From: Escherichia coli phage Wa28
Reading direction: 5' to 3' (one strand)
Length of the DNA: 64,000 nucleotides
Sequence record: LC788710.1
Shown here: piece after piece, positions 23,517 to 37,341 of the stretch
Layout of the letters: the number at the start of each line of letters is the position of its first letter
Position numbering within the stretch: the stretch's first letter is position 1
Translations under genes and position numbers: made by a program
The notes under the pieces: model-generated
Told to the model about the DNA's origin: nothing
The model's database searches: none
Seen by the model: the letters and a program-made list of their open reading frames with translations, nothing else

Positions 23517-23881
23517 TAGATCTCCCTGATGTTAGAATTTGGCTCAGCTTTTTGTTAACCCAGAAGCAAGATAAAAACTGGAAGGCAGGCTTGCTTATTA
23601 AGTGAATACCCGATAATCGCTCGTAGTCCGGCTTGTGGATTGATAGTCCCATTCAGTTTAATAAGCACAGGAGCTTTGATTTTAACGTTGCGATCTTCCA
23701 GGTCTGTTGCAACTACGTGATTGCTCACGCTAAGACAATGGCTATCTAAAGTCTTAGCTTCTACATTTATACTCCTGGATAGCATGGAGTTGCAGTCTAC
23801 TTCCTGCTGTCACGCCCGGCCATTTATAGAATGTGGACTCTCTTCTCAGCAGGATCTGGTACAATGACCTGATCCTCTGTT

Positions 23882-23957
23882 TGGTAGTTAGTAGTGGATT
23901 TGAACCACTGTAGTCGCTCCGTATGAAGGAGGTGCATAACCACTCTGCCAACTAACT
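23882..23957 (-). tRNA. tRNA-Met-type (anticodon CAU)
   Basis: Hand-folded: T-arm AGTGG/ATTTGAA/CCACT, anticodon loop gives codon ATG, encoded CCA. Confidence 0.7.
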
Positions 23958-23963
23958 ATAATT

Positions 23964-24039
23964 TGGTACTCCGACTTGGGATCGAACCAAGATTTGACGA
24001 TTATCGGTCGCCTGTTCTAACCGTTTGAACTATCGGAGC
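23964..24039 (-). tRNA. tRNA-Ile (GAU), atypical C33
   Basis: Hand-folded cloverleaf; loop sense CCGAUAA. Confidence 0.55.
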
Positions 24040-24040
24040 A

Positions 24041-24334
24041 TTACATCATTTCGTCTAAGTAAGAAGTATACTGGTATTTAGCTTCTCCAGTTTTATCTAC
24101 TTCGACTTCTGTTCTAGGTACTTTTCGTACCAGACCGTGAATCATCTTGTACTGAATAGACTTAGATGGTTCGTGATCTTTTGGAAATACTTGTTTAACC
24201 GTTACTACTTTGAAGCCTTCACGAGGTGTTAGCACAACAACTTGATCACCTTCTTTTATTTTCCAAGACTCAGGAAATTCGTAAGTGTAGCGTTGACCAC
24301 CCGTTTGGAACACGACAGAAAGATAACGTTTCAT
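24041..24334 (-). CDS. hypothetical protein (97 aa)
   Basis: ORF downstream of promoter. Confidence 0.5.
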   Translation of the reverse strand: MKRYLSVVFQTGGQRYTYEFPESWKIKEGDQVVVLTPREGFKVVTVKQVFPKDHEPSKSIQYKMIHGLVRKVPRTEVEVDKTGEAKYQYTSYLDEMM

Positions 24335-24364
24335 TTGGTTTCCCTCTCATTAATTTATGTAAAT

Positions 24365-24393
24365 ATTATAACAAGAAATAAGAGAGAAGGCAA
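24365..24393 (-). promoter_or_regulatory. early promoter TTGCCT-17-TATAAT
   Basis: Motif read. Confidence 0.6.
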
Positions 24394-24408
24394 ATGAATT
24401 TTTAAATT

Positions 24409-24483
24409 TGGTGCTCCCACCAGGAATCGAACCCGGTTCAGATGCTTACAAGGCAACTGCATCGCCAGCAATGCTTTAGGAGC
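24409..24483 (-). tRNA. tRNA-Thr (UGU)
   Basis: Hand-folded cloverleaf. Confidence 0.65.
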
Positions 24484-24650
24484 AATAAACCCGTTATTTC
24501 AACGGAATTTCTTTTTCAAATACAGGAGACTTATCAGACATTACTGTCATAGCCAACTGCTGTAGAAATTCGAATGAGAGTTTTAAACGTTCTTCACCCA
24601 ACTCAACCTCAACACACTTCATTTGCTTATCAACCTTTAGCTTTAGATTA

Positions 24651-24872
24651 TCAGCCCTCTTCGGGTTCTCTTTGCTCAGCTATTGCTAGCCAGTCTGGTA
24701 AAAGAAACTTAGTACGAAATTCTTCATATGTTTCTTCTGGATGAAAGCTATAGCCTTGCTTTTCATCATTTAATAAAACCGAACCGTCTTCCTGTTCATA
24801 AGCTCGGTATGTTTCACCAATAATTAAAACTCGTCTATTGGGGTTTTTATTACGAAACTCAAAAACGTCCAT
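24651..24872 (-). CDS. hypothetical protein (73 aa)
   Basis: ORF. Confidence 0.45.
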   Translation of the reverse strand: MDVFEFRNKNPNRRVLIIGETYRAYEQEDGSVLLNDEKQGYSFHPEETYEEFRTKFLLPDWLAIAEQREPEEG

Positions 24873-24887
24873 AACGTTTCCTTAAGT

Positions 24888-24962
24888 TGGTGCGGGATAC
24901 GAGAGTCGAACTCGTGTCTACTGGTTGGAAGCCAGTTATTCTAGCCACTGAACTAATCACGC
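24888..24962 (-). tRNA. tRNA-Gly (UCC)
   Basis: Hand-folded; perfect T-arm and anticodon stem. Confidence 0.75.
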
Positions 24963-24968
24963 ATAAAT

Positions 24969-25044
24969 TGGCTGGAGAAGGAGGAATCGAACCTACCATT
25001 AACGGAGTCAAAGGCCGTTGTGCTAACCGTTACACTACTCTCCA
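24969..25044 (-). tRNA. tRNA-Gln (UUG)
   Basis: Hand-folded. Confidence 0.65.
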
Positions 25045-25050
25045 AGTATT

Positions 25051-25126
25051 TGGCTGGGATGCCACGGATCGAACGTGGAACCTTCGGAGTCAGAGGCCGA
25101 CGATCTGCCAATTGATCTACATCCCA
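25051..25126 (-). tRNA. tRNA-Gln (CUG)
   Basis: Hand-folded; exact acceptor pairing. Confidence 0.7.
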
Positions 25127-25133
25127 ATAATTT

Positions 25134-25334
25134 TTATTCTACAGGAACCGTGGCAATTGGATCTGGTTCTTCTAGACGTTTACCATTATGGTCAACACGA
25201 ATAATACCACAACCTTCACAGATTACAACAGCACCATAGCCTTCTTTAACTTCGGCTTCTGTAATCAGACCAGAAAGATCACCAGTATCTTTGCCCCACA
25301 TATCGATAGAGCATTCTTTGCAGAAATCAGCCAT
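25134..25334 (-). CDS. small zinc-ribbon protein (66 aa)
   Basis: CKEC...CEGC. Confidence 0.45.
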   Translation of the reverse strand: MADFCKECSIDMWGKDTGDLSGLITEAEVKEGYGAVVICEGCGIIRVDHNGKRLEEPDPIATVPVE

Positions 25335-25358
25335 ATTTTAGTTCCTGTATAAGTTAAT

Positions 25359-25433
25359 TGGTGCATCCTCAGGGAATCGAACCCCGATCGTAAAGTTCGT
25401 AGCTTTACATTCTTTCCGTTGAAATAAGGACGC
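25359..25433 (-). tRNA. tRNA-Arg (ACG)
   Basis: Hand-folded; perfect anticodon stem. Confidence 0.7.
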
Positions 25434-25438
25434 ATATT

Positions 25439-25515
25439 TGGGGTGGCTAGTGGAATTCGAATCCACATAGGCCTGATTCACAATCAGGATCATTAACCAA
25501 TTATGATATAGCCAC
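25439..25515 (-). tRNA. tRNA-His (GUG)
   Basis: Hand-folded; 77 nt consistent with extra 5' G. Confidence 0.8.
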
Positions 25516-25896
25516 AATTGAATACTATTAGGGGATGATCAGTCCTCCATTTGGCCGTCTAAGGTACCAAAGTTAGTCATTCTGCGCACAGGTTTTTCTC
25601 CTGATTCTTTATTGCGAATGCTCTCTAATAATACTCAATTGTGGCGGCTCTCCGAAACTCTTCTACTCTAGCCTTAGCAGCTTACTCCCGAACGCATGTC
25701 GGGAAAGTCTTACTAAGAACATCAAATAGCACCGTTACACTTTGAGCCATTAATGTATCAAGAAGCAGAAGGACTTGAACCTTCACGAGATAGACCATTT
25801 ATCTCAGCCTCGTTTTCGGGTATCTTATGAGGAGTGGATGTTCCCCTTACGCCCTTTAGGAAGCCCCGTCTACCGATTCCGGCATACTTCAAGATT

Positions 25897-25986
25897 TGGC
25901 AGAAGATAATGGAGTCGAACCATCACCGTATCACTACAGCGGGCCGGTTTTCAAGACCGGTTACGTACCACTACGTCCTATCTTCT
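25897..25986 (-). tRNA. tRNA-Ser (UGA), type II
   Basis: Hand-folded; long variable arm. Confidence 0.7.
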
Positions 25987-26213
25987 AGTATTTGTTCTAC
26001 TTCTTTTCGAAGATCTTCTGGATTATCATGATAGGTTGTTTGCCATACATAAATAACTCCAGTATCACATGCTTTATCAAATATTTCTCGCTCAGGAAGT
26101 TTCATGCCCATTGCGTACTTGATATGAAACTCTAAAGCTTGCTTACTAGGGAATGTATGACGCAAGAAAAACTTATCATTAACTAAATCCAACATCATAA
26201 TCTTGACTTTCAT
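25971..26213 (-). CDS. hypothetical protein (80 aa)
   Basis: ORF. Confidence 0.45.
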   Translation of the reverse strand: MKVKIMMLDLVNDKFFLRHTFPSKQALEFHIKYAMGMKLPEREIFDKACDTGVIYVWQTTYHDNPEDLRKEVEQILEDRT

Positions 26214-26234
26214 TTATATTCCCTATTAGTTGTT

Positions 26235-26327
26235 TGGCGGAAGAAGAGAGATTCGAACTCTCAAGCCTGCTTTAACAAGTCAGCCACTTTCCAAGCGGTT
26301 TTCGTCACCTAATCGATTTGCTCTTCC
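26235..26327 (-). tRNA. tRNA-Ser (GGA), type II
   Basis: Hand-folded; variable-arm hairpin; one weak anticodon-stem pair. Confidence 0.55.
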
Positions 26328-26501
26328 GTAGATCTCAGGATTAAATCATAAACTTCATTAGCAGATACTGGAAGTATGAGATTATACATCTTTTGGTCAT
26401 ACCTCTGACCATACTCTATAAACACATACTCTTTAGTTAATGTATTAACAGCTAACCAGATATCAGTTATAGGAGTTTTCATCATGAGTTAATCCAATGT
26501 T

Positions 26502-26582
26502 TGGTAGGGATGGAGGGACTCGAACCCACACCCGAAGACTAGAACCTAAATCTAGCGCGTCTGCCAATTTCGCCACATCCCC
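26502..26582 (-). tRNA. tRNA-Leu (UAG)
   Basis: Hand-folded; perfect anticodon stem; 9-nt variable region. Confidence 0.6.
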
Positions 26583-26589
26583 ATTTTAT

Positions 26590-26808
26590 TTAGTTAGAAA
26601 TAAATAGTAACCCTGCAACAATGGAACCTATGCCACTGAATACCATTATCAGCATAGCTTCTAAGCTGATAAAGCGGACGTTATATGGAGCGCCCCAAGA
26701 ATAATCAGTAAAGAAAGTTTTCTTTTCTTTAGCTAAATCTTTAATAGTTCTAAAATAGATAGCTAGTGCTAAAGCTACAAGAACTACAGAGGCTGCTAAG
26801 AATACCAT
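26590..26808 (-). CDS. small membrane protein (72 aa)
   Basis: ORF. Confidence 0.4.
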   Translation of the reverse strand: MVFLAASVVLVALALAIYFRTIKDLAKEKKTFFTDYSWGAPYNVRFISLEAMLIMVFSGIGSIVAGLLFISN

Positions 26809-26827
26809 ATTATTTCCTTAATTTGTT

Positions 26828-26903
26828 TGGTGGAGTCACTCAGAATTGAACTGAGTTCCACTGCTTGCAAGGCAGTAAGTTTAACCAAATAACCTATGAC
26901 CCC
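26828..26903 (-). tRNA. tRNA-Ala (UGC)
   Basis: Hand-folded; G3-U70 in acceptor stem. Confidence 0.75.
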
Positions 26904-26908
26904 GAATT

Positions 26909-26987
26909 TGGTGGAGAATAAGAGATTCGAACTCTTCTGATATCCTCGGTGCAAGCGAGGTGTCCACTCCAAGCAGACCCATTCCCC
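26909..26987 (-). tRNA. tRNA-Ala (UGC), second copy
   Basis: Hand-folded; G3-U70 present. Confidence 0.6.
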
Positions 26988-27249
26988 AAAATCTTTAAGT
27001 TTACTAAGGCTATTAGCTCGGTGTGCGTATTACCCTCAGACATTAGCCAGTAGAGGATAACCGCTCTTCACAAACCCGATACACTATTCAGTTGCCGCTG
27101 AATCTAGTGGACTAATCTAGAACTTATTGCAAAGTATCCCCCGCCATTAAGGGTCTACTTGCAATTGTGCTTTTTGGCAGCCAGTCCTAGGTCGAGCTAA
27201 TACCTTAGTGAACTTTGATGAGGATTTCTCCTCATCAATTTATATAAAT

Positions 27250-27278
27250 ATTATAACAAGAAATTAAGCATCAAGCAA
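27250..27278 (-). promoter_or_regulatory. early promoter TTGCTT-17-TATAAT
   Basis: Motif read. Confidence 0.7.
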
Positions 27279-27630
27279 GTACATTTTTAGCGATTTCTTG
27301 TATTTCCTTAACGTCACTAACGAAAAGGTAATCAGAGCTTCCAGAGTGCATACTCTGCATAACCACACCATCCTCTGGTGCATCTTCTTTCAAAGTAATA
27401 CCTAACCAGAACTCGGCAAAACTAGGTGTTACCTCACCTTGACTTGCCTTGAATACATCGGCTTCTGTGATCTCCTGACCAGTAGAGAGTCCCATGTACG
27501 GTACGTTCAGATCAATATCTTTGTAAAACTCAGCTAGATCTTGTTCGAAGTCCCAACCTTTAGAGATAGCGAACTCCATTGTTACATGACCGAAATAGCC
27601 TTGAACCTTGCTTGATAATTGCATTTGCAA
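27271..27630 (-). CDS. hypothetical protein (119 aa)
   Basis: ORF. Confidence 0.55.
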   Translation of the reverse strand: MQMQLSSKVQGYFGHVTMEFAISKGWDFEQDLAEFYKDIDLNVPYMGLSTGQEITEADVFKASQGEVTPSFAEFWLGITLKEDAPEDGVVMQSMHSGSSDYLFVSDVKEIQEIAKNVLA

Positions 27631-27649
27631 TTCCTTATTTTGAGTTAAT

Positions 27650-27723
27650 TGGTACTCGGTGATAGAATCGAACTATCGCAACCGCCGTGTAAAGACGGGG
27701 TTCTCCCATTAAACTAACCGAGC
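27650..27723 (-). tRNA. tRNA-Val (UAC)
   Basis: Hand-folded. Confidence 0.65.
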
Positions 27724-27727
27724 AATT

Positions 27728-27805
27728 TGGTGGATTGCCTGGGATTCGAACCCAGAACTGACGGATTAAAGGTCCGCTACTCTTATCCGGTTGAGCTAGC
27801 AATCC
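27728..27805 (-). tRNA. tRNA-Lys (UUU), atypical C33
   Basis: Hand-folded; exact acceptor pairing, GCUC D-stem; loop sense CCUUUAA. Confidence 0.6.
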
Positions 27806-28269
27806 AATTTTTCTACTAATAATTTAAAAGCATCTAGTACAGGTACTTCAAACCATTCCCCGGATACTCTGTAGTCTTTGAGAAGATTATGTAACTCTTT
27901 CTCCGTACGTCTTTTATCTGACGAAAATCTGAAATGGTGTAGCTTGTAGTCTCTATTAGGTGAATAGGTTTGATAACTTGCTAACCTCTCATTTACATCT
28001 ATAGTCATACCTATTTTATACATGCCTGGCCATGCGGGATTACCGATTACATATACAAAACCTTCCGTTATAGGTATTTTATGTTCTCTTTTGTATTTTA
28101 AGAGATTTAAAGCTGCCATTCGATAACAGAATTTAAATTCTGAAGTTTTTAACTTACCCTCTTTACCAGAAATTTCATTATATTTGCTCATATAAGCTCT
28201 TATAAGCTTATCATCTATAATAAAATTATCAGGAAGGTTTAAGGCAGCTAAAACTTTATTAATTAGCAT
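27796..28269 (-). CDS. T5orf172-domain (GIY-YIG-like) protein
   Basis: GFVYVIGNPAWPGMYKIGMT...YQTYSP motif. Confidence 0.65.
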   Translation of the reverse strand: MLINKVLAALNLPDNFIIDDKLIRAYMSKYNEISGKEGKLKTSEFKFCYRMAALNLLKYKREHKIPITEGFVYVIGNPAWPGMYKIGMTIDVNERLASYQTYSPNRDYKLHHFRFSSDKRRTEKELHNLLKDYRVSGEWFEVPVLDAFKLLVEKLDC

Positions 28270-28444
28270 AAACTTCCTTAATAGAGTAGACTTTCAAGTA
28301 AGGATGATTAATACCAAATTCCGCCATTACTTCATTTTCATCTTTACCATAATGGGCTAGTGGATACTTCTTACGATCTTTACTAGAACGTAAATCACTT
28401 ACTTTTAAACGAAATAATTTCATTTCGAAATCCTTCTATTAAAT

Positions 28445-28522
28445 TGGAAGCGGGTGCAGGAATCGAACCTACCTCTTTCTAGCTTATGAGACTAGCGATC
28501 TCTACCAGAGATCTAACCCGCA
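28445..28522 (-). tRNA. tRNA with CAU anticodon (Met, fMet or Ile2)
   Basis: Hand-folded. Confidence 0.6.
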
Positions 28523-28528
28523 ATTGTT

Positions 28529-28606
28529 TGGTCTCCGTGGGAGGATTTGAACCCCCGACCCTATCGCCCCAAACGAAACGCTCTAGCCAAACTGAGCTAC
28601 ACGGAG
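28529..28606 (-). tRNA. tRNA-Pro (UGG)
   Basis: Hand-folded; exact acceptor pairing. Confidence 0.65.
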
Positions 28607-28638
28607 AATATTCTTTGTTAACTCACTTTATAAAATAT

Positions 28639-28667
28639 ATTATACAGAGAATTAAGCTAAATAGCAA
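28639..28667 (-). promoter_or_regulatory. early promoter TTGCTA-17-TATAAT
   Basis: Motif read. Confidence 0.65.
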
Positions 28668-28921
28668 CTACATTTTTTAATAAATTTACTTATTGCGTAG
28701 GCCACCTGGAGGGTTCAAGCCCCACGGCTGACAAAGAAGTTTGCGAGACTTCTCTTAAACGCCAGAATAGACCCGCCGATCTATCGGAACCTACTCAATA
28801 AGTAAACTTTCGTTTACCTACACCTACCTGGTCGGGAGGATTTTCAGCGACTAGAACCGGCCGGAAACTCATCGCCTTGTTTATCTAGGAGTCCGTTCTC
28901 TAGGAAGCAGAAACCTAAATT

Positions 28922-28995
28922 TGGTGCGGTCGGAGGGAATCGAACCCTCAACTTCTGGTTGGCAACCAAAAATTATACCTTTTAACTACGAACGC
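28922..28995 (-). tRNA. tRNA-Gly (GCC)
   Basis: Hand-folded. Confidence 0.7.
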
Positions 28996-29001
28996 ATAAT
29001 A

Positions 29002-29130
29002 AGTCAATCTAGGCAGGACTTGAACCTGCTATCACTTGTGCGGATTTACGAGAACCATTCTTTCACTCGAATCGAACGAGCTTCTACCCTCGGCAAGCTG
29101 GTGTCCCCTCTCCACCACGCTAGAATGATA
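29002..29130 (-). other. two degenerate tRNA-like elements (T-arm-like GCAGG/ACTTGAA/CCTGC and CTCG/AATCGAA/CGAG) lacking full cloverleaf
   Basis: T-arms found; no pairing acceptor or canonical anticodon arm. Confidence 0.3.
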
Positions 29131-29208
29131 ATTAGTGCCTGCTCCTTTGAATCAAGAAGTCCACCCCGGACTTTGGGTCTTTGCAGTACATCACGCTGCT
29201 CTGATGTT

Positions 29209-29285
29209 TGGTACACCCACTAGGACTTGAACCTAGAACCTACCGCTTAAGAGGCGGTAGCTCTAACCAATTGAGCTATGGATGT
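29209..29285 (-). tRNA. tRNA-Lys (CUU)
   Basis: Hand-folded; perfect anticodon stem. Confidence 0.7.
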
Positions 29286-29291
29286 ATAATT

Positions 29292-29366
29292 TGGCGGTAC
29301 TAAGGGTAATCGAAACCCTACCTCTCCCGTGACAGGGGAGTATCCTAACCGTTAGACTATAGTACC
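29292..29366 (-). tRNA. tRNA-Asp (GUC)
   Basis: Hand-folded; exact acceptor pairing. Confidence 0.75.
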
Positions 29367-29938
29367 TTTAACTTTTTAAGTTCTTTAGGATTGCCTCCTA
29401 AAGAAGTGTATCTTTTACGCAACCCATTATCTGAATAACTTAACTTTCTCCCTGCACCTGACCAGCCTAGCTCTCTTACTGTAACCTCGATTATTTCTTT
29501 AGTTATAGAGATATCTTTTGGTTTATGTGAAGAGCACTCCTGACATTTTTCAGCTTTTAAAGAAATAGCTTTACCACAATCCTTACAACAATTATCATGG
29601 TTTAGTTTACTAAATCCTTTATCTTTTAAAGTCTTTTCTAGATGCTGCTCTTTTGTGAGCACTTGTAAGTTATTAAGACCCCAATAAGTAATGTCTGTGT
29701 TAATATGGTCAACTTCTAGTTCAGAGTCTAGACTTGGTAATTTCTTAAATGCACATGCTAAAATCCTATGTACACCGGTATTTCTCTGTTGACCATTTTT
29801 ATGGAGACGTATAGATAAGTATCCGTAATTACTGGTTATTTGGGTTAGTATTTTGTTTGATTTGATACTAAATACTAACCCATCCAAACTTACTAAGTAC
29901 TCCTCAAACCCTGGAATGGGTAAGGATATTCCGTGCAT
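29357..29938 (-). CDS. HNH homing endonuclease
   Basis: NGYLSIRL...HRILACAF...VDHIN motifs; Cys cluster. Confidence 0.65.
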   Translation of the reverse strand: MHGISLPIPGFEEYLVSLDGLVFSIKSNKILTQITSNYGYLSIRLHKNGQQRNTGVHRILACAFKKLPSLDSELEVDHINTDITYWGLNNLQVLTKEQHLEKTLKDKGFSKLNHDNCCKDCGKAISLKAEKCQECSSHKPKDISITKEIIEVTVRELGWSGAGRKLSYSDNGLRKRYTSLGGNPKELKKLKVL

Positions 29939-29941
29939 AAT

Positions 29942-30127
29942 TTACTCAGTTTTGAGTTTTTCGATAGCTTCCTCAACCTCTTTTAGAGCTTCACGACGCT
30001 CTACTTGACCTTGAAGTTCTTCAAGAAGTTCAGCTTTCAGAGCCTTAATAATATTACCACGAACCTTAATATTATTAATCAGATTATCACGATCAGCTTC
30101 TAGTCGAGCAATTGCACGAGTTGTCAT
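29942..30127 (-). CDS. small coiled-coil protein (61 aa)
   Basis: ORF. Confidence 0.4.
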   Translation of the reverse strand: MTTRAIARLEADRDNLINNIKVRGNIIKALKAELLEELQGQVERREALKEVEEAIEKLKTE

Positions 30128-30230
30128 ATCTATTTCCTCAGTTGTTAATGAAAAATGGTATCTGTGACTGAATTCGATATCAGCAATGATAGCTGGTTGG
30201 CTACCGGTTTACTTAACTCTACACAGAATA

Positions 30231-30313
30231 TGGCGGGCCGTGTAGGATTCGAACCTACGTTGTCTTTCGACATGGATTAACAGTCCACCGCCAAACCGCT
30301 TGGCTAACGACCC
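30231..30313 (-). tRNA. tRNA-Asn (GUU) with unusually long (13-nt) variable region
   Basis: Hand-folded. Confidence 0.55.
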
Positions 30314-30320
30314 TAAAATT

Positions 30321-30396
30321 TGGACGACCGCATGAGATTCGAACTCACATAAGGAGGTTTTGCAGGCCTCCGCCTAAGCCATTCAGCCAACGGTCG
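30321..30396 (-). tRNA. tRNA-Cys (GCA)
   Basis: Hand-folded. Confidence 0.6.
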
Positions 30397-30574
30397 ATTT
30401 ATCTTGCTTTTCGAGATTAGTAAACTCTAGATCTTTAGAATGTCCTATAGATCTAGCATAATAGCCATCTCCAGCATCGTAGCCTGATTTACCGCACTCA
30501 CACATCTTAAACTCTCTATAATGAGTGAAAATATGTTCAGAACCACAACACTTAAATTTAACTAACATTTTCAT
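30383..30574 (-). CDS. small zinc-ribbon protein (63 aa)
   Basis: CCGSEH...CECG. Confidence 0.4.
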   Translation of the reverse strand: MKMLVKFKCCGSEHIFTHYREFKMCECGKSGYDAGDGYYARSIGHSKDLEFTNLEKQDKSTVG

Positions 30575-30813
30575 TTAACACGCTCCGGTAAATCTTCGAG
30601 TTTATATTGAGTAGCCACATTAGCAGCATCTAGTAACAAACCCATATGTTTAAGAATCCTAGTGATAGCCTCGCCTTCTGCTTCTTCTACAAAAGTGCGT
30701 AGTTGAATGAAGTCAATACCCCCATCCATACCAGAGAAAATGTTTAGTAAGCGAAGCATTACCAGCTTACGTTCTTTCAATTCTTGTTCTGTCATGTTGC
30801 TTCTCCAGTTCAA
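30571..30813 (-). CDS. hypothetical protein (80 aa)
   Basis: ORF downstream of promoter. Confidence 0.45.
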   Translation of the reverse strand: MNWRSNMTEQELKERKLVMLRLLNIFSGMDGGIDFIQLRTFVEEAEGEAITRILKHMGLLLDAANVATQYKLEDLPERVK

Positions 30814-30824
30814 TTTATGTAATA

Positions 30825-30853
30825 ATTATACAGAACTTTAAGCGGTTAAGCAA
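30825..30853 (-). promoter_or_regulatory. early promoter TTGCTT-17-TATAAT
   Basis: Motif read. Confidence 0.65.
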
Positions 30854-31124
30854 CTACATTTTTTAAGAATTTGATGCCTTTCTTTTTCTTCTTATATTTC
30901 CACGTTAACGGGTTCTGTCGATTATGAACGCTTGAGATCTTTGTCTCGTCAAAGTTCTTCAAAACCATGTAATCACAGGCCAACTGTTCTAGTGGGATGT
31001 GATCTCCATCAAAAGCATAAACATAAGGCTGTTGACTAGCACGATAATGATAGACTTTGTTAATTCTGCGTTTCAGTGACTTATCCGCACAGTAAATAAA
31101 GAAGTTTTCAGGATGCATCAGCAT
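30846..31124 (-). CDS. hypothetical protein (92 aa)
   Basis: ORF. Confidence 0.45.
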   Translation of the reverse strand: MLMHPENFFIYCADKSLKRRINKVYHYRASQQPYVYAFDGDHIPLEQLACDYMVLKNFDETKISSVHNRQNPLTWKYKKKKKGIKFLKNVVA

Positions 31125-31135
31125 CTCCTTAAAAT

Positions 31136-31210
31136 TGGTGCACCCTGTTCGTATCGAACGAACCTCTCAAGCTCTTCAGGCAAGCGCTAATCCATCTCAG
31201 CTAAAGGTGC
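31136..31210 (-). tRNA. tRNA-Phe (GAA), weak anticodon stem
   Basis: Hand-folded; two U-U mismatches in anticodon stem. Confidence 0.5.
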
Positions 31211-31216
31211 AAATAT

Positions 31217-31293
31217 TGGCAAACCTACTAGGACTCGAACCTAGACCGTACGGTTTTGGAGACCGACATGCTGTCCAGTAACACTCTAGGAAT
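31217..31293 (-). tRNA. tRNA-Trp (CCA)
   Basis: Hand-folded; acceptor stem 5/7 paired. Confidence 0.55.
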
Positions 31294-31301
31294 GCAGAAA
31301 T

Positions 31302-31378
31302 TGGCGTCCTGTGCGGGGATCGAACCCGCAAACCCCACCTTGAAAGGGTGGTGACTTTACCAGTTTGTCTAACAGGAC
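31302..31378 (-). tRNA. tRNA-Glu (UUC)
   Basis: Hand-folded; all stems perfect. Confidence 0.8.
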
Positions 31379-31860
31379 TTAAATTGTTTATTGGATAGAT
31401 TGTTAAACTCGGAAAGTATGTCGTCTACACTTCTGTCTAACACTACCCATTCATTAAGCCGTTCAGGAAAGCTATTATGAAGCATTTTCTCCGCTTCTCT
31501 AGCATTAAACCAAAATGACCAATGTATTAACTTATAATCACGTAAGGGAGAATAAGTTTGGTAATTTCCTAATCTTGTTTTAGGATCAGAAGACATACCA
31601 ATTTTTACATAGTTATCCCACGCTGGGTTAGTTATTGCATAAATAAAACCACAGCTGGATTTTTCTCCAATACTTTTGTTATACTTGATAAAAGATAGGG
31701 CAGATAACTTCAAGCTATATCGACGATTACTATCGCGACCAAAGTTAGCTGTACCAAATGTGAGGCTTTCTAATATTAGATCTTTGTTTATATCGGCGGG
31801 TGAACCCAACTGTATAATACCTCTATTTGCAGCTTCTTGAATTATCCGATCAATATACAT
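31369..31860 (-). CDS. T5orf172-domain (GIY-YIG-like) protein
   Basis: GFIYAITNPAWDNYVKIGMS...YQTYSP motif. Confidence 0.65.
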   Translation of the reverse strand: MYIDRIIQEAANRGIIQLGSPADINKDLILESLTFGTANFGRDSNRRYSLKLSALSFIKYNKSIGEKSSCGFIYAITNPAWDNYVKIGMSSDPKTRLGNYQTYSPLRDYKLIHWSFWFNAREAEKMLHNSFPERLNEWVVLDRSVDDILSEFNNLSNKQFKSC

Positions 31861-31877
31861 ATCCTTTACCTTTAATT

Positions 31878-31965
31878 TGGTGGGCGTTAATGGAGTCGAA
31901 CCACTCGAGTCGCAATGACCAGGGATTTACAATCCCCTCCGCTACCACTTACGGAATAAACGCCC
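31878..31965 (-). tRNA. tRNA-Tyr (GUA), type II
   Basis: Hand-folded; long variable arm. Confidence 0.7.
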
Positions 31966-32094
31966 ATATTTAGAAGTATTCAAATACTTGTTTAAACACT
32001 TTTAAATATGTTTTCCAAATTAGATATCTATTATATCAAGTTTTGAAGGACTGAGCAAGTCAAATTTTAAAGAACTTGCTCAGTGCTACATCAG

Positions 32095-32370
32095 TTACTC
32101 GAAGCTAGGAGTGACGCTCAGTTTGAATGGAAGCTCGAACACTTCTTCATAATCATCATTGAGCGTAATTACACGACCTTCTAGCTTAGTCATGGTGATT
32201 TCGATATCAGCCCTTGCATCAGGAGCCATACCAGCTTCCACACATTTAGCTTTAACTTCCGGCAGAAGTTCTACGTCGTAGAAATAAAGCCATTCAATCT
32301 CACCTTCCCAGCCACCCCAGGATTTACAAACAGCACTTTCAACACCAGTTGCAGTAACACGTTTTGACAT
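32095..32370 (-). CDS. hypothetical protein (91 aa)
   Basis: ORF. Confidence 0.5.
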   Translation of the reverse strand: MSKRVTATGVESAVCKSWGGWEGEIEWLYFYDVELLPEVKAKCVEAGMAPDARADIEITMTKLEGRVITLNDDYEEVFELPFKLSVTPSFE

Positions 32371-32400
32371 TCGTTAACTCCTTCATCAATTTATATAACT

Positions 32401-32430
32401 ATTATAACAGAAATCTTAAGTAAAAAGCAA
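32401..32430 (-). promoter_or_regulatory. early promoter TTGCTT-18-TATAAT
   Basis: Motif read. Confidence 0.6.
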
Positions 32431-32460
32431 GTACATTTTTAAAATTTCTGCTTGGAGGAG

Positions 32461-32733
32461 TTAAACTCCTGATTCTTCAGCCAGATCAAGCCCAACCAAC
32501 GTGATTGCCATAATAGCCGCGCCATGTTCTTTCTCCCCTAGCTCTTTGGCTTGAGCGAGAATATTGAGGAATTGCTTTTGAAAATCTGCAACTTCTTCTG
32601 TCATGCCTGCTTCAGCAATAATTCCTTTAAGCATAAAGCGTTGTGCCGTAATTTCAGGATTAGCCATTTGTTTTCTCCAGTTATTTAGAATGTAAGCCAA
32701 ACTTAGGATCATAGCGATCGTAAGTCGTACCAT
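32461..32733 (-). CDS. hypothetical protein (90 aa)
   Basis: ORF. Confidence 0.5.
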   Translation of the reverse strand: MVRLTIAMILSLAYILNNWRKQMANPEITAQRFMLKGIIAEAGMTEEVADFQKQFLNILAQAKELGEKEHGAAIMAITLVGLDLAEESGV

Positions 32734-32818
32734 TAGTTGAAGCCTTAATGCTATGGAAACGACAGTACATAAATTTACGTAGTGCTTTCTTAATAGCTTT
32801 CATTTTATTTCCTTAATT

Positions 32819-32895
32819 TGGTAGGGGTGGTGGGATTCGAACCCACAAAACCTGAATTTTAAGTCCAGTACCTATGCCAATTCGATTACACCCCC
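32819..32895 (-). tRNA. tRNA-Leu (UAA), short variable loop
   Basis: Hand-folded; D-arm poorly paired. Confidence 0.55.
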
Positions 32896-32903
32896 ATGTA
32901 ATC

Positions 32904-33257
32904 TTAGCGAATCTCTAAACCCTGGAAATATCGAGGGAATGGAGAGCCAACTTCAAAATTGATGCCCCAATTAAGTTCAACGAGTTCAGATTTATTAAGA
33001 TCTAGGCCATTACCTTCAAAGATATAGCCGTAAACCGCAGGAAACATAGCTGCTAGATCTTCCATATCGGAATGAGCATTGTGTTCTTCACGGAACTGCT
33101 CAAACTCTTCAAAGAACTTTTCTAGGAAGAACTCAGGTACGATGAACGTTACCACATCAGTAGAATCATCGGTACGATACACCGTAGCTTGGAACAAGCC
33201 AACACCTAAAAGGTTTATTGCCGGAGTAGTAAAAATATCCATCTTAGCCTCGCTCAA
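32904..33257 (-). CDS. hypothetical acidic protein (117 aa)
   Basis: ORF. Confidence 0.5.
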   Translation of the reverse strand: MSEAKMDIFTTPAINLLGVGLFQATVYRTDDSTDVVTFIVPEFFLEKFFEEFEQFREEHNAHSDMEDLAAMFPAVYGYIFEGNGLDLNKSELVELNWGINFEVGSPFPRYFQGLEIR

Positions 33258-33429
33258 TGTCTAGACAAATTGCATATTCAGGGTTGATACCAGTACCTTT
33301 ACATGTAGGACATTCCCATTCTCTACAGAAAATACCCCCCGGTTCTGCATCATCCTGCCTACCACCACCATGACAGTCCTTACACCGACATTCTTCTAAT
33401 GCTTTCTTCATTTCATAGAATCTAGACAT
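33244..33429 (-). CDS. small zinc-ribbon protein (61 aa)
   Basis: CRCKDCHG...CREWECPTC. Confidence 0.45.
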   Translation of the reverse strand: MSRFYEMKKALEECRCKDCHGGGRQDDAEPGGIFCREWECPTCKGTGINPEYAICLDIERG

Positions 33430-33446
33430 ATAGTCTCCTGGTTAAT

Positions 33447-33524
33447 TGGTGGCTCCCGGAGGATTCGAACCTACCTACCTTTCGCTTATGAGGCGACGGC
33501 TCATACCAAATGAGCTTGAGAACC
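33447..33524 (-). tRNA. tRNA with CAU anticodon (Met, fMet or Ile2), third copy
   Basis: Hand-folded; anticodon loop identical to 28445-28522. Confidence 0.6.
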
Positions 33525-33529
33525 AAATT

Positions 33530-33623
33530 TGGAGGAAGATGCCAGACTCGAACTGGCACACCGTGTCTCCACAGCTACTGGCTGTTTAGCAAACAGCTCC
33601 CTTACCTTTAGGGTTAATCTTCC
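33530..33623 (-). tRNA. tRNA-Ser (GCU), type II
   Basis: Hand-folded; perfect anticodon stem, exact acceptor pairing. Confidence 0.7.
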
Positions 33624-33637
33624 GAATTTATGAATAT

Positions 33638-33666
33638 ATTATACAGAAAATTTCGGCATTAAGCAA
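33638..33666 (-). promoter_or_regulatory. early promoter TTGCTT-17-TATAAT
   Basis: Motif read. Confidence 0.65.
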
Positions 33667-33674
33667 GTGAAATT

Positions 33675-33971
33675 TTACTGAACACTGCACTGATACACTT
33701 GTTTGATACGTGTCACTGACTTCTTAGTTGGATTGATAGAAGAACCTTGCCACCAACGTGACTCTGAGCTAAGAACAGCGCCAGGAACAGCCTGCTCTTT
33801 TGGCAGAACAATATCAAAACACTGTTCACCCATATTATCTTTAATGTGTGACCAAATATCCAAAGTAAATCGTTCTAACTTATTACAAACCTGAACTTGA
33901 CAAAGTTCCTGTTGCGGAGCAGCAAATACAGAAGTAGATACTAGAGCCAATGCAAGTACAATGCGTTTCAT
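33675..33971 (-). CDS. secreted protein (signal peptide), 98 aa
   Basis: MKRIVLALALVSTSVFAAP. Confidence 0.5.
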   Translation of the reverse strand: MKRIVLALALVSTSVFAAPQQELCQVQVCNKLERFTLDIWSHIKDNMGEQCFDIVLPKEQAVPGAVLSSESRWWQGSSINPTKKSVTRIKQVYQCSVQ

Positions 33972-34001
33972 GTTTGATTCCTCTCTCGAATTTATAAATA
34001 T

Positions 34002-34030
34002 ATTATACAGAAATTTTCTATATTAAGCAA
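34002..34030 (-). promoter_or_regulatory. early promoter TTGCTT-17-TATAAT
   Basis: Motif read. Confidence 0.65.
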
Positions 34031-34077
34031 GTGAAAATTTCTGTATAATAGCCCTCGCTTAGAGGGCTATAACTACT

Positions 34078-34770
34078 TTATTTGTTAACGCGTACAAAGT
34101 ATCCTTTATAAGCTCCAAGAATAGAGTTGCCTAAGAATACTAGCCACATTGCTAGGATTGCGTAAGATGCACCTGTAGATTGAGCAGTTACAAGCCAAAT
34201 GTACACAGTACCAATGTTAATAGCAATCCAAATCAGCCATTGTTCAGCATATTGTTTGACCATAAGCCACATAGCAATCACACTACCAACCGCAGTAAAT
34301 GCATCCAACATTGGGAATGGATCAGCCGTAGTAGCAAGGAAACTACCATAACCTAACGTGGCTACTGCTAAAATCCCTAGAGTCAGCAAAGCTTGAGCTT
34401 TTGTCAGAACTTTAGTTGGAACATCCGGTAGATTACTTGGCTTATTTTTATGCCACAAGTACATTCCGTAGAACTGCATAGGAACGTAGTACAATAGGTT
34501 TAGTGCTGCGTTACCATAAAGATCAGCATTTAGAGCTGTAATACCGTAGGTCAGAACACCTACCAAACCCCAGACATAGTTGGAAACACGTCCTTTTGCA
34601 ACCAGAATAACACAAACCACATTGGTTATTGCAGTAGCCCAATCTAGAGCTGTACCATTATAGTTTGCTAAACTAATGAAGACAACCGCTATGAACAGCC
34701 ACAGATATTCCAGAGGTTTCCAGTTTTTAAAGTCATTTACGAGATAGTTAGTCATATTAAAACTCTCCAA
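34078..34770 (-). CDS. pnuC: PnuC-family nicotinamide riboside/NMN transporter
   Basis: Multi-TM; EQWLIWIAINIGTVYIW resembles E. coli PnuC ENWLLWVIINVISVVIF. Confidence 0.75.
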   Translation of the reverse strand: MESFNMTNYLVNDFKNWKPLEYLWLFIAVVFISLANYNGTALDWATAITNVVCVILVAKGRVSNYVWGLVGVLTYGITALNADLYGNAALNLLYYVPMQFYGMYLWHKNKPSNLPDVPTKVLTKAQALLTLGILAVATLGYGSFLATTADPFPMLDAFTAVGSVIAMWLMVKQYAEQWLIWIAINIGTVYIWLVTAQSTGASYAILAMWLVFLGNSILGAYKGYFVRVNK

Positions 34771-35830
34771 CGTTAAAGTGATGAATCAGCCAGTCTACTG
34801 CGTTTACTGCTTCGTCCATACGAACTTTGTAGTCCGGAGAGTCGATGTAAACAGTACGCCCTTCAGGGAACTGATTTGGAAATTCTTTCTTCATCTGCTC
34901 GAACAGTTCAGAAGTAATTGAACGATCGGAGTTAATACGTAAACCATCATCTACCCACTTGACAGTAGGCGCTAGAACAATTACTAAATCGTAATGTTCT
35001 TCTTTTGCAATTGCTGTAACCACAGGGTTCTTACTATGTTCATAAAGTCTGTGGTAGAACTCAGTAATAAAAGCATTTGTATCCACAAACATGATCTTAT
35101 TTGCAGTACGTTCTGCTTCAAACTCTAGCTCTTTGTGTCTGAACGCAATTTTACTATAGTCTTCGCTGGTAAGCAGATTTTCGTTACCAACTAGATCAAC
35201 TTCACAATACGTTCGGCCATATTCTTCTACCCACGAAGTGTTGTATAGCTTCGCAAGGTATTTTGTTAAAGTAGTCTTTCCTGAGCTTTCAGTCCCAATG
35301 ATTACAACCTTACGCACGTAATCTTTACGAGCTACGCTAGGAAGAAACTCCCAATACTTCATAAGATCATTACGAATCATTGTAGCTGAGATTGGAACAC
35401 GAGTCCGATCAGAATCTACAATATAATGACCAAACTTCGGCAGATATTTCTTATATTCTGCATCATAGTCTAGTTCGCTAGAGAAAATGGTGATCTCAGG
35501 CAAATGTCCGTAATTTTCATTAAGGATTCTAGCATATTCCGGCCAACCATTCGGATATTCAGGAATATCATCTTCAATAATGTACTCTACCGAAATGTGC
35601 TCAATATCCGCGTAAGTTTGTTCTAACCAACGAAGTCGATTCTTTAACTGTAATACTTCCTGATCACGAGTGTTCTGCTTATCCAGCCAACGATTATCAT
35701 GACTAACTACAACAATAACTCGTTCACACATAGTTGCTGCTGTGTTTATTAGGTTAATATGACCACGCGTTAATGGCGCGAACTTACCAATTACTAGACC
35801 AGTCTTAATCATATTTGATTCCTCTCTCAA
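34757..35830 (-). CDS. nadR: NadR-like bifunctional NMN adenylyltransferase / ribosylnicotinamide kinase
   Basis: N-terminal GKFAPLTRGH nucleotidyltransferase motif; central GTESSGKTT P-loop. Confidence 0.75.
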   Translation of the reverse strand: MREESNMIKTGLVIGKFAPLTRGHINLINTAATMCERVIVVVSHDNRWLDKQNTRDQEVLQLKNRLRWLEQTYADIEHISVEYIIEDDIPEYPNGWPEYARILNENYGHLPEITIFSSELDYDAEYKKYLPKFGHYIVDSDRTRVPISATMIRNDLMKYWEFLPSVARKDYVRKVVIIGTESSGKTTLTKYLAKLYNTSWVEEYGRTYCEVDLVGNENLLTSEDYSKIAFRHKELEFEAERTANKIMFVDTNAFITEFYHRLYEHSKNPVVTAIAKEEHYDLVIVLAPTVKWVDDGLRINSDRSITSELFEQMKKEFPNQFPEGRTVYIDSPDYKVRMDEAVNAVDWLIHHFNVGEF

Positions 35831-35842
35831 ATTTATAAATAT

Positions 35843-35871
35843 ATTATACAGAGAATTTAGCGTTCAAGCAA
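35843..35871 (-). promoter_or_regulatory. early promoter TTGCTT-17-TATAAT
   Basis: Motif read. Confidence 0.65.
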
Positions 35872-36024
35872 TCGAATTTTTAAACTTTTTAGTGGAAAAA
35901 TCTCAAGGCATTTAGTGGTAGCACGTTGTTGCTACAATAATAGTATATGATTCTAAAGAATTAAAGAATTAAATACTAAAGACCTTAGTTGAATAACTTA
36001 TGGGCTTTTCTTTTGCCTTAAATA

Positions 36025-36059
36025 CAGAAAAGCCCGCGCTCTCGGAGGAAACGCGGGCT
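36025..36059 (-). terminator. rho-independent terminator (GCCCGCG..CGCGGGC)
   Basis: 7-bp GC stem with A run on plus. Confidence 0.7.
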
Positions 36060-36083
36060 TGGTTCGAAGATTACGTGTAACTA

Positions 36084-37028
36084 TTACTTGTTACGCATAT
36101 CCATGATCATTTGACCATCGTAGCCAGTACCAACAACAGTCTGCGGTACACCACCTTGGTATTTTTCAGCACGAAGCATTTCAACTTCCAGCTGCTTCCA
36201 ACGAATCATTTCAGGAGTAATGGTACGTTGCAGCGCGGCGTTAGCTTCAGCTTCTTTCTTAGCTGCGTACAGTTTAGCATCTGCGTCACGTTCGTTAGCT
36301 ACTGCCATGTTTTCACGAGCAGAACGATCAGCTTCAGCTTGCTTAACTTTCTGCTGTGCTTCTTGTTCAACACGAGCCAATTCAGCTTTAGCGGCGTTAA
36401 CTTGTTCTTCACGAACTTTTGTGTTTTGTACCTGTTCCATGATTACAGGTGGCAGAGTAATATCCTGAAGGAATACTTGCTTAACCGTGTAACCATAAGG
36501 ACGCGCGTACTCTTCTACTTCTTGCTGAATAGCAGTTTGCAGTTGAGCCTGAATCTTAGCGTCGAACAGATCTTGTGCTTTTGGTACAGACTTACCAAAC
36601 TCACGAATCGTAGATAGCATCTTCTCTTCAACGTACTTGTTCAGAGCTTGATCCTGAGTACCTGCGTTAACACGGTTCATAGGAGCTTTAGCACCATCAA
36701 ACTGCAACATAACGGTAATGTCAACAGTGGACTTAAACTTATCCTGGCTAGGAACCTGGAGTTTATCCAGTTTCATAGAAATATCTTTCGTACTAAAAGT
36801 ATCAAAAGAGGCGAATGGGTTGACAATATGGAACCCCGGCAATACAGGATTAGGACTAACTTTACCCAGGAAAGTCTGAGTTTTAACCGTACCGTCCTGA
36901 ACAACTGTATAGGAATTGAGAGCCAGAATAAGAGCGCCAAGACCAACTACAGCACCAACACCCCAACGTTTAATAGTACGAATTACTTTTTGATCGGAAG
37001 TCAGTTCTTTAGTGTTTTTAGTAAACAT
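36084..37028 (-). CDS. SPFH/band-7 (prohibitin/HflC-like) membrane protein
   Basis: N-terminal TM, SPFH core, Ala/Glu/Lys-rich coiled-coil tail. Confidence 0.75.
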   Translation of the reverse strand: MFTKNTKELTSDQKVIRTIKRWGVGAVVGLGALILALNSYTVVQDGTVKTQTFLGKVSPNPVLPGFHIVNPFASFDTFSTKDISMKLDKLQVPSQDKFKSTVDITVMLQFDGAKAPMNRVNAGTQDQALNKYVEEKMLSTIREFGKSVPKAQDLFDAKIQAQLQTAIQQEVEEYARPYGYTVKQVFLQDITLPPVIMEQVQNTKVREEQVNAAKAELARVEQEAQQKVKQAEADRSARENMAVANERDADAKLYAAKKEAEANAALQRTITPEMIRWKQLEVEMLRAEKYQGGVPQTVVGTGYDGQMIMDMRNK

Positions 37029-37039
37029 ATATTTCCTTA

Positions 37040-37240
37040 TTATTTAGAAGAGTTAGCTACTACAGTTACTTTAGTTGCAGAAATAAACAGGCTAGCATCC
37101 ACAGCAAATTCAGGAGCTTTGATATCTCCGTTATGAAATATGACTATACCGGAGACTACTTCAAATGCTAGCGCTGTAACATCGGTGGTATTTACTTGTG
37201 AATGTTCACCTACTACTTTTACTATATATCGTGTTTTCAC
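37040..37240 (-). CDS. small protein, possible NfeD-like partner of SPFH
   Basis: 66-aa ORF immediately upstream of SPFH gene; beta-rich composition. Confidence 0.35.
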   Translation of the reverse strand: MKTRYIVKVVGEHSQVNTTDVTALAFEVVSGIVIFHNGDIKAPEFAVDASLFISATKVTVVANSSK

Positions 37241-37266
37241 TTTATTTTCCTAGCAGTTAATAAAAT

Positions 37267-37341
37267 TGGCCGAGGTGACAGGATTCGAACCTGCATAAAG
37301 GAATTTAGAAGACTCCTGCCTATCCCTTAGACTACACCCCG
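37267..37341 (-). tRNA. tRNA-Arg (UCU)
   Basis: Hand-folded. Confidence 0.65.

Follow-up and report, generated by a model that had tools for sequence, protein, structure and literature searches.

Two transfer RNA (tRNA) genes of Escherichia coli phage Wa28, encoding tRNA-Ile(GAU) and tRNA-Lys(UUU), specify C rather than U at position 33 of the anticodon loop. We analyzed both genes in a stretch of 64,000 nucleotides from this phage (sequence record LC788710.1; this whole stretch is the window referred to below). C33 never reverts within these two alleles, and the signal in C33 is its conservation, not its count. We tentatively favor the interpretation that, in two phage lineages of functional elongator tRNAs, C33 has become fixed in the anticodon arm and is maintained by selection, with a possible role in counter-defense. 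We found no report of C33 in phage tRNAs in the literature that we searched. The genes have long been in GenBank and variant phage tRNAs are known; the C33 detail and its breadth among phages seem to be undescribed.

Register, conservation, and function of the C33 tRNAs

The C at position 33 is in register in both tRNAs. The genes for tRNA-Ile(GAU) (23964..24039, minus strand) and tRNA-Lys(UUU) (27728..27805, minus strand) were called by ARAGORN, each with an encoded CCA, and matched the Rfam tRNA covariance model (RF00005; gathering score 29) with 58.9 bits, in a full-length alignment, and 59.9 bits, respectively. The anticodon arm of tRNA-Ile(GAU) is GGCGA-CCGAUAA-UCGUC (window positions 24012-23996, with C33 at 24006) and that of tRNA-Lys(UUU) is GCGGA-CCUUUAA-UCCGU (27777-27761, with C33 at 27771); the latter tRNA also has C41 and C16. 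Both were aligned over model positions 1-71, the bases of the anticodon arm had the top posterior symbol ('*') throughout, and C occupied the column in which the consensus is U. Because all five anticodon-stem pairs are standard in both tRNAs, with a seven-base loop and a closing pair A31-U39, there is no shifted register that offers U33, and no better-scoring alternative fold with U33. When positions 27-43 were extracted from the 29 tRNAs of the window, position 33 was U in 27 and C only in these two, and U33 was the sole canonical elongator feature that either of them lacked. The sequence-only reading had named these two tRNAs and their loops, and had held that well-paired stems fix the loop register; the extraction and the covariance alignment bear out both statements. 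Its view of U33 as near-universal in elongators agrees with a review of the field that treats U33 as invariant there and gives as exceptions eukaryotic initiators (C33) and Candida tRNA-Ser (G33) (PMC5041475).

C33 was not due to sequencing error. We compared synthetic U33 versions of the two sequences, as 31-mers centered on the loop, with 50,697 phage records and found no exact full-length match for either the Lys or the Ile version. The best full-length matches were one mismatch off, and the band of 95-99% identity held 112 records for Lys and 166 for Ile. Every homologue that we fetched, from phages BF23, Bas32, S132, 26175IV, Roth39, Boggle, KEY, BIS47, Gurke, and ZHF, has C33. Sequencing error, which the earlier reading had left as a way out, is thus excluded, because the U33 versions are unmatched and the identical base is present in more than 100 independently sequenced phages. 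An explanation by artefact or gene decay in general (an error of sequencing or assembly, or tRNA pseudogenes) is so improbable that we set it aside. We found nothing in its support, although phage arrays do hold degenerate tRNA-like genes, such as the match at 37874-37945. The scores of the two tRNAs lie in the upper part of the range in the window (29.3-69.6 bits), no stem is broken, and the homologues are conserved, with strong covariation. By raw count, two C33 tRNAs among 29 are unremarkable: with about 2.5% C33 in sampled phage tRNAs, the probability of at least two in 29 is approximately 0.16.

Both tRNAs are almost certainly ordinary, working elongators, as judged from their sequences. 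Both end in A73-CCA. Using the synthetase identity sets for Ile and Lys from PMC9976931, we found that tRNA-Ile keeps C4-G69, U12-A23, C29-G41, G34-A35-U36, A37, A38, U20, and A73, the change of G16 to A16 being the sole alteration of an identity element, and that tRNA-Lys keeps U34-U35-U36 and A73. The codons read, AUU and AUC for Ile and AAA for Lys, include the third (AAA) and fourth (AUU) most used in the long open reading frames (ORFs) of the window. The phage has no second gene for Ile-GAU or Lys-UUU, and these tRNAs are its only phage-borne supply for AUU/AUC and AAA. The tRNA-Lys of BF23 is identical to that of the window except for one base in the D loop, and a note by the depositors in the BF23 record states that replacing its anticodon by CUA gave an effective amber suppressor, the backbone of which presumably retained C33. 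In yeast, tRNA-Leu(GAG) is a natural C33 elongator in which a change to U has minor effects only (bioRxiv 10.64898/2026.02.20.707122).

These properties speak against specialized decoding or a non-canonical function, which had been proposed from the sequence alone. According to that proposal, C33 reshapes the loop and thereby alters wobble, frameshifting, or codon context, or else makes the tRNA a non-translational decoy or inhibitor of host nucleases. U33, the base that forms the U-turn, is called invariant in elongators (PMC5041475), codons starting with A could be read differently if C33 blocked t6A37, and the authors of work on the PARIS system speculate that overexpressed viral tRNAs competitively inhibit its nuclease AriB (PMC12409363). 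However, the identity elements are intact, the BF23 suppressor points to a normal part in translation, the two genes are the only ones in the phage for heavily used codons, and natural C33 in yeast is nearly without effect. There is no support for specialized decoding in our results, and we consider this family of explanations very improbable. C33 would more likely be a shield against host enzymes that cut or modify tRNA than a source of new decoding.

C33 alleles in T5-like phages and beyond

The C33 versions are interchangeable alleles within a mosaic tRNA region, because U33 versions stand at the same array positions in T5, BF23, and SP15 for Ile and in T5 and SP15 for Lys. The arm of tRNA-Ile in those three phages is CUCGG-CUGAUAA-CCGAG; the arms of tRNA-Lys are CUGGU-CUUUUAA-ACCAU in T5 and UCCGA-CUUUUAA-UCGGA in SP15. 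The window matches Escherichia coli phage Shin27 (LC788709) with 100% identity over bases 23800-28700. Shin27 is a T5-like phage (Demerecviridae, Markadamsvirinae, Epseptimavirus), and this stretch is related to sequences in 617 phage records, mainly of Salmonella, Escherichia, and Klebsiella phages. Copies of tRNA-Ile with 100% identity to that of the window occur in Shin27, bux, LVR16A, GreteKellenberger, and other phages, and the tRNA-Lys allele of the window is also found in BF23, Bas32 IrisVonRoten, Eps7, and phiR2-01. The two assort independently: Shin27 has both, BF23 and Bas32 have C33 tRNA-Lys (together with U33 tRNA-Ile in BF23), and GreteKellenberger (Bas26) and saus132 have C33 tRNA-Ile together with U33 tRNA-Lys. 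Neither C33 allele was present in 5,426 complete E. coli genomes; the host arms, both with U33, are CACCC-CUGAUAA-GGGUG for Ile and GUUGA-CUUUUAA-UCAAU for Lys. Because only four (Lys) and five (Ile) loci in IMG/VR match long patterns for the T5-like alleles, the allele counts given here are from the GenBank phage set.

In the window, T5, BF23, and SP15, a single anticodon arm is found for each of Asp, His, Phe, Thr-UGU, and Arg-UCU, compared to three or four versions for each of Lys-UUU, Tyr, Ala, Pro, and Leu-UAG. The number of Lys-UUU arms rises to at least six in T5-like phages when BD13, vB_Kpn_3, and GreteKellenberger are added. Several of the tRNAs with variable arms (Lys, Tyr, Asn, and Ala) are published targets of defense tRNases. 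In GreteKellenberger and SuperGirl, the D arm and T arm of tRNA-Lys(UUU) are as in the window and the acceptor stem and anticodon arm (CCGAG-CUUUUAC-CUCGU, with U33 and C38) are wholly different, a pattern that suggests recombination or arm-specific diversification.

The C33 tRNA-Ile(GAU) genes make up a large phage group, the members of which have diverged deeply and show covariation throughout the cloverleaf. We searched viral contigs for the Ile anticodon arm with any base at position 33. With the exact stem, position 33 was C in 18 and T in 15, and C33 occurred in at least six backbones. A looser pattern (CGA-CNGAUAA-UCG plus a T-loop; 120 loci listed, pooled with loci fetched earlier) gave, among the matches listed, at least 45 unique C33 and at least 31 unique U33 tRNA-Ile(GAU) sequences, with at least 15 combinations of outer stem pairs. 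C33 is also kept in homologues that BLAST recovered without use of a pattern and in which both halves of the outer stem have changed: the stem is GGCGA/UCGCC in the Klebsiella T5-like phage Roth39 and the Vequintavirinae phage BIS47, AACGA/UCGUU in Klebsiella phage Boggle and Erwinia phage KEY, and CCCGA/UCGGA in the Brevundimonas jumbo phage Gurke. The C33 tRNA-Ile of Aeromonas phage 44RR has the stem CUCGA/UCGAG. Among 43 distinct C33 Ile sequences aligned, 99.2% of stem cells pair and compensatory changes occur in 17 of 21 pairs; the covariation score was 0.80 compared to 0.17 for shuffled alignments (none of 500 shuffles reached 0.80), and every slid register collapsed. The loop and three inner pairs of this alignment are constant by design of the search; A73 is invariant without having been selected. 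Outside the anticodon arm the mean identity in the group is 65% and the minimum 41%. Its members come from Demerecviridae, Vequintavirinae, Straboviridae, Dolichocephalovirinae, and many uncultured phages. As a bacterial control, none of the 120 genome matches listed for the same Ile arm pattern is a tRNA; the arm is absent among the matches listed.

C33 is rarer in tRNA-Lys(UUU). With the exact Lys stem of the window, position 33 in viral contigs was T in 117, C in 2, and A in 1. A scan for A31-CCUUUAA-U39 found 34 unique C33 tRNA-Lys sequences, mainly within dense phage tRNA arrays. Among tRNAs of viral contigs that were outside any search pattern, 62 of 2,474 (2.5%) have C33, in many specificities, including 3 of 42 Ile-GAU, 1 of 66 Lys-UUU, and 5 of 77 Val-UAC. 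C33 reaches 6-7% in Val-UAC, Ala-UGC, Ile-GAU, and Thr-GGU, and none was seen in Met-CAU (0/166), Arg-UCU (0/109), Arg-ACG (0/72), Trp (0/72), Cys (0/70), or Phe (0/82). Tolerance of C33 thus seems to depend on the tRNA species. In metagenome contigs, C33 was present in 7 of 71 tRNAs from arrays of at least five tRNAs and 1 of 118 from loci with one to four (p=0.005), which suggests, on a small cellular baseline (1/118), enrichment in phage-type arrays over cellular tRNAs.

A few uncultured viral contigs are rich in C33 (12 of 37 tRNAs in L471, 6 of 19 in L432, 5 of 35 in L136, and 5 of 17 in L308), which hints that some phage lineages have C33 as a general habit; the C33 tRNAs of L136 are mainly ANN decoders (Lys-UUU, Asn-GUU, Thr-UGU, and Thr-GGU). 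A tRNA-Val(GAC) gene that stands alone in its locus, on the metagenome contig Ga0157380_10006239, has good stems and an encoded CCA; its loop, UCGACAC (C33), is also found in two Val-GAC genes of viral contigs. Some cellular lineages may also have C33 elongators.

The main rival to selective maintenance, and a serious one, is that C33 is nearly neutral: it is tolerated, arose once or a few times, and spread by hitch-hiking with recombination or homing. The low cost of C33 in the natural yeast elongator is consistent with this explanation, as are its occurrence in about 2.5% of phage tRNAs of many specificities without a codon-class pattern, the coexistence and intermixing of U33 and C33 forms that share an inner stem, the patchwork of alleles in the T5-like tRNA region, and the tight linkage, in two phage families, of the Lys allele to a gene for a putative mobile nuclease (described below). 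However, drift back to U would be expected at a neutral site, and C33 is invariant in about 100 Lys and about 166 Ile records. It persists through two-sided changes in the acceptor, D, and T stems, and in a comparison of the Aeromonas and T5-like copies of tRNA-Lys the anticodon arm, including C33, is the best-conserved block. The absence of C33 from the sampled Met-CAU and Arg-UCU tRNAs indicates that the site is not free in general. Weighing these points, we regard near-neutrality as a real, though unlikely, possibility. If C33 is neutral, the distribution described here is a useful warning to those who annotate tRNAs or take U33 to be invariant.

Host enzymes acting at the anticodon loop

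A counter-defense role of C33 is plausible, especially for tRNA-Lys(UUU), a hub target of host enzymes: PrrC (PMC2610378), AriB of the PARIS system (PMC12409363), and RorSlfn5 (PMC13056530). PrrC cleaves tRNA-Lys 3' of U33, and RloC cleaves there and one base further (PMC2610378). According to a review, mnm5s2U34 and t6A37 enhance cleavage by PrrC (PMC13191261). In the one tRNA examined, the change U33C abolishes formation of t6A by E. coli TsaBCDE in vitro, and the authors of that work call C33 an anti-determinant in bacteria and yeast (PMC8887486). AriB cuts tRNA-Lys(UUU) between positions 40 and 41; its determinants are U39, A41, and U16, and the changes A41C and U16C impair cleavage (PMC12409363). 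A tRNA-Lys carried by a phage can rescue infection on hosts with PrrC170 (PMC11555353) or PARIS (PMC11464382). Compared to the host tRNA-Lys, that of the window has C33 at the scissile bond of PrrC and C41 and C16 at determinants of AriB. It keeps U39, the strongest AriB determinant, but has the other two changes, and we predict that it confers partial resistance to PARIS. For tRNA-Ile(GAU), the toxin CdiA-CT-EC536 cuts the E. coli tRNA between C32 and U33 (PMC11724271), and the phage tRNA differs from that of the host in having C33 at this bond.

Based on these reports and our comparisons, we believe that C33 might weaken the anticodon loop as a substrate of host enzymes acting on it and leave decoding essentially intact. 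In tRNA-Lys(UUU), C33 would act at the site between positions 33 and 34 that is cut by PrrC and RloC. It could also act through loss of t6A37, because PrrC works better on tRNA with t6A37 and C33 is reported to be an anti-determinant for TsaBCDE. C41 and C16, which are two of the three types of substitution that impair AriB, may add to evasion. In tRNA-Ile(GAU), the relevant activity could be of the kind represented by CdiA-CT-EC536, which demonstrates that enterobacterial tRNases can cut between positions 32 and 33. Spread of the alleles would have been helped by mobile cassettes.

Several observations weigh against selective maintenance of C33 for counter-defense. The effect of C33 on TsaBCDE was determined with a single tRNA in vitro (PMC8887486), and t6A37 is a strong determinant for bacterial isoleucyl-tRNA synthetase (PMC9976931); loss of t6A37 should therefore cost tRNA-Ile efficiency in charging. 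We asked whether the SP15 tRNA-Lys that rescues from PrrC170 (PMC11555353) is a C33 allele and ruled this out: the SP15 copy has U33, in a loop that does not differ from that of E. coli, and C33 is therefore not needed to evade PrrC170. The change U33C leaves cleavage by the yeast gamma-toxin unaffected. We know of no anticodon nuclease specific for tRNA-Ile(GAU) that serves in phage defense, the only documented enzyme being the interbacterial toxin CdiA-CT-EC536. U33 and C33 forms of tRNA-Ile that share the inner stem coexist and partly intermix. C33 was not enriched in tRNAs of the t6A class (U36-A37-A38), with 5 of 282 compared to 17 of 727 in other tRNAs (p=0.81), and in a larger set it was present in about 2.4% of ANN-decoding (t6A-class) tRNAs versus 2.6%. 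C33 in tRNA-Ile and C33 in tRNA-Lys were not associated among 107 distinct arrays: 4 had both, 28 had C33 Ile with U33 Lys, 13 had U33 Ile with C33 Lys, and 62 had neither (p=0.77). The pair does recur, in 44RR and in the viral-contig loci L449 and L494.

A broader proposal is that C33 is a general signature of counter-defense, such that the tRNAs decode normally and escape host enzymes that need U33, which in enterobacteria would be the t6A37 machinery and t6A/U33-dependent nucleases of the PrrC/RloC type. We view this generalization with considerable doubt. If it is true, then the C33 tRNA-Ile(GAU) group points to a host tRNase or other effector of the anticodon loop that attacks tRNA-Ile(GAU) and is yet to be found, and suggests that this tRNA is an unrecognized immune target. 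C33 would also be a testable determinant for how phage tRNAs fare against immunity by tRNA cutting (PARIS, PrrC, retron Eco7, Schlafen), and if it blocks t6A37 or PrrC-type cleavage in E. coli, a single base change would be a route to defense-proof tRNAs. Apart from this proposal, U33 is treated as invariant, yet a set of phage tRNAs departs from it and, in the interpretation that we favor, the departure is kept under selection.

The window's tRNA-Lys resembles the PARIS-neutralizing tRNA-Lys(UUU) of T5 (PMC11464382, PMC12409363) in its array position beside tRNA-Val, its anticodon, and an anticodon arm that has diverged from that of the host; C41 and C16 are common to both. The two are different alleles, with 57 of 78 bases identical: T5 has U33 and A39 where the window has C33 and U39, and T5 is without the ORF that adjoins the window allele (below). 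We found no published test of cleavage or rescue with the C33 tRNA-Lys allele of the window in the literature searched, the tested alleles of T5 and SP15 having U33, and in the PARIS papers that we read we found no statement on the sensitivity to PARIS of Bas32, which has C33 tRNA-Lys. Both alleles are available in laboratory phages, that for Lys in BF23 and the BASEL phage Bas32 and that for Ile in Bas26.

Phage tRNAs with mutated loops have been proposed to evade nucleases (van den Berg et al. 2023, PMC10264068), and the loops of the window tRNAs likewise differ at or beside cleavage sites. That work does not mention position 33 and assumes, for coliphage tRNA-Lys, repair by phage RNA ligase instead of a change in the loop (PMC10264068). 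The window tRNAs differ from those cases in that no nuclease is known for which C33 matters.

Eukaryotic C33 tRNAs, namely initiator tRNA-Met of multicellular organisms and S. cerevisiae tRNA-Leu(GAG), also have C33 in otherwise canonical, functional tRNAs; they are encoded by cellular genes, in contrast to the viral genes of the window. The initiator loop, CCCAUAA, has the layout C32-C33-N-N-U36-A37-A38 found in CCGAUAA and CCUUUAA, and a hallmark of initiators is three consecutive G-C pairs closing the anticodon stem. A eukaryote-type C33 initiator was ruled out for the window: the anticodons are GAU and UUU, not CAU, and the closing pair is A31-U39 in both tRNAs. C33 modulates t6A37, and human and nematode KEOPS accept C33, whereas E. 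coli TsaBCDE reportedly does not (PMC8887486).

A nuclease-like ORF beside tRNA-Lys and other features of the array

The C33 tRNA-Lys gene is overlapped by an ORF with a nuclease-like domain. The ORF (27796..28269, minus strand) encodes 157 amino acids with a T5orf172/MUG113 domain of the GIY-YIG nuclease-like type (Pfam PF13455, 9.6e-19; PF10544, 5e-15) and is annotated as a GIY-YIG family nuclease in one relative. Its 3' end overlaps the first 10 nucleotides of the tRNA-Lys gene. The ORF is present at this site in Shin27, BF23, Bas32, and JLBYU43 and absent beside the Lys alleles of T5 and SP15. Two T4-like phages of Aeromonas, ZHF and 44RR, likewise have a T5orf172 ORF that overlaps a C33 tRNA-Lys gene (L529, 1065-1625, and L032, 3208-3798, both on the minus strand). 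These ORFs are 49-51% identical to that of the window (E values of 3e-28 and 1e-28), and the Aeromonas and T5-like C33 tRNA-Lys genes are approximately 80% identical, with an identical block of 21 nucleotides around the anticodon arm. A tblastn search with the ORF found about 85 phage records at 80% identity or more, with a tRNA-Lys under the match among the matches listed. The ORF together with C33 tRNA-Lys behaves as a two-gene unit common to unrelated phage families, and it looks like a mobile nuclease-plus-tRNA cassette.

This arrangement raises an explanation by selection at the level of DNA, in which the ORF encodes a homing endonuclease with a site in or near tRNA-Lys, the C33 arm gives immunity, and the U33 alleles of relatives are cut and converted. 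T4 SegB and the F-Tfl HNH enzymes of T5 are examples of enzymes that are active in regions of tRNA genes. As with the homing-endonuclease genes of phage tRNA clusters, the window has a small ORF of a nuclease family directly against a tRNA gene, the ORF is variably present in close relatives, and the linked tRNA allele differs from that of phages without the ORF. The association of the ORF with the C33 allele, its absence next to the U33 alleles of T5 and SP15, and the same pairing in Aeromonas phages fit this explanation, as does a paralogue in T5 that overlaps the start of tRNA-Asn in the same manner. The window differs from the characterized cases in that its ORF has a T5orf172/MUG113 domain rather than being a characterized Seg or HNH enzyme, and is shared as an ORF-tRNA pair across phage families. 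Against homing as the cause of C33, the nuclease activity of the ORF is predicted only from its domains, and the stems of the other C33 Lys-UUU sequences, 34 in number, are for the most part quite unlike that of the window. tRNA-Ile is also not covered by this explanation; the ORF next to it lacks a nuclease domain and C33 tRNA-Ile occurs in many unrelated arrays. We consider it improbable that homing accounts for C33.

The T5 paralogue, T5.069 (T5 positions 10007-10525), is 47% identical to the ORF of the window and overlaps the 5' end of the T5 tRNA-Asn gene (9953-10030), the anticodon arm of which differs from the Asn allele shared by the window and SP15. The overlap of an ORF with the start of a tRNA gene may generally accompany the replacement of alleles in this region.

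The two C33 genes are part of a T5-type tRNA gene region (23882..37341, minus strand) with 29 tRNA genes among small ORFs, as called by ARAGORN. All 29 are on the minus strand, and their order agrees with the tRNA regions of T5, BF23, and SP15, with which the region is syntenic. The window is 39.8% G+C. Rfam confirmed 27 of the 29 and added one borderline match (37874-37945, minus strand; 29.3 bits relative to the gathering score of 29) that was not called by ARAGORN. This match lies beyond tRNA-Arg(UCU), approximately where T5 and BF23 have an annotated stable 'RNAX', and may be a tRNA-like remnant.

Four tRNAs of the array have the anticodon CAU (compare 24969-25126, minus strand). Two adjacent genes for tRNA-Ala(UGC) (26828-26903 and 26909-26987, minus strand) have different anticodon arms, ACUGC-CUUGCAA-GCAGU and CCUCG-CUUGCAC-CGAGG. 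The second arm is that of the SP15 allele, and two alleles of one specificity thus stand side by side in the phage.

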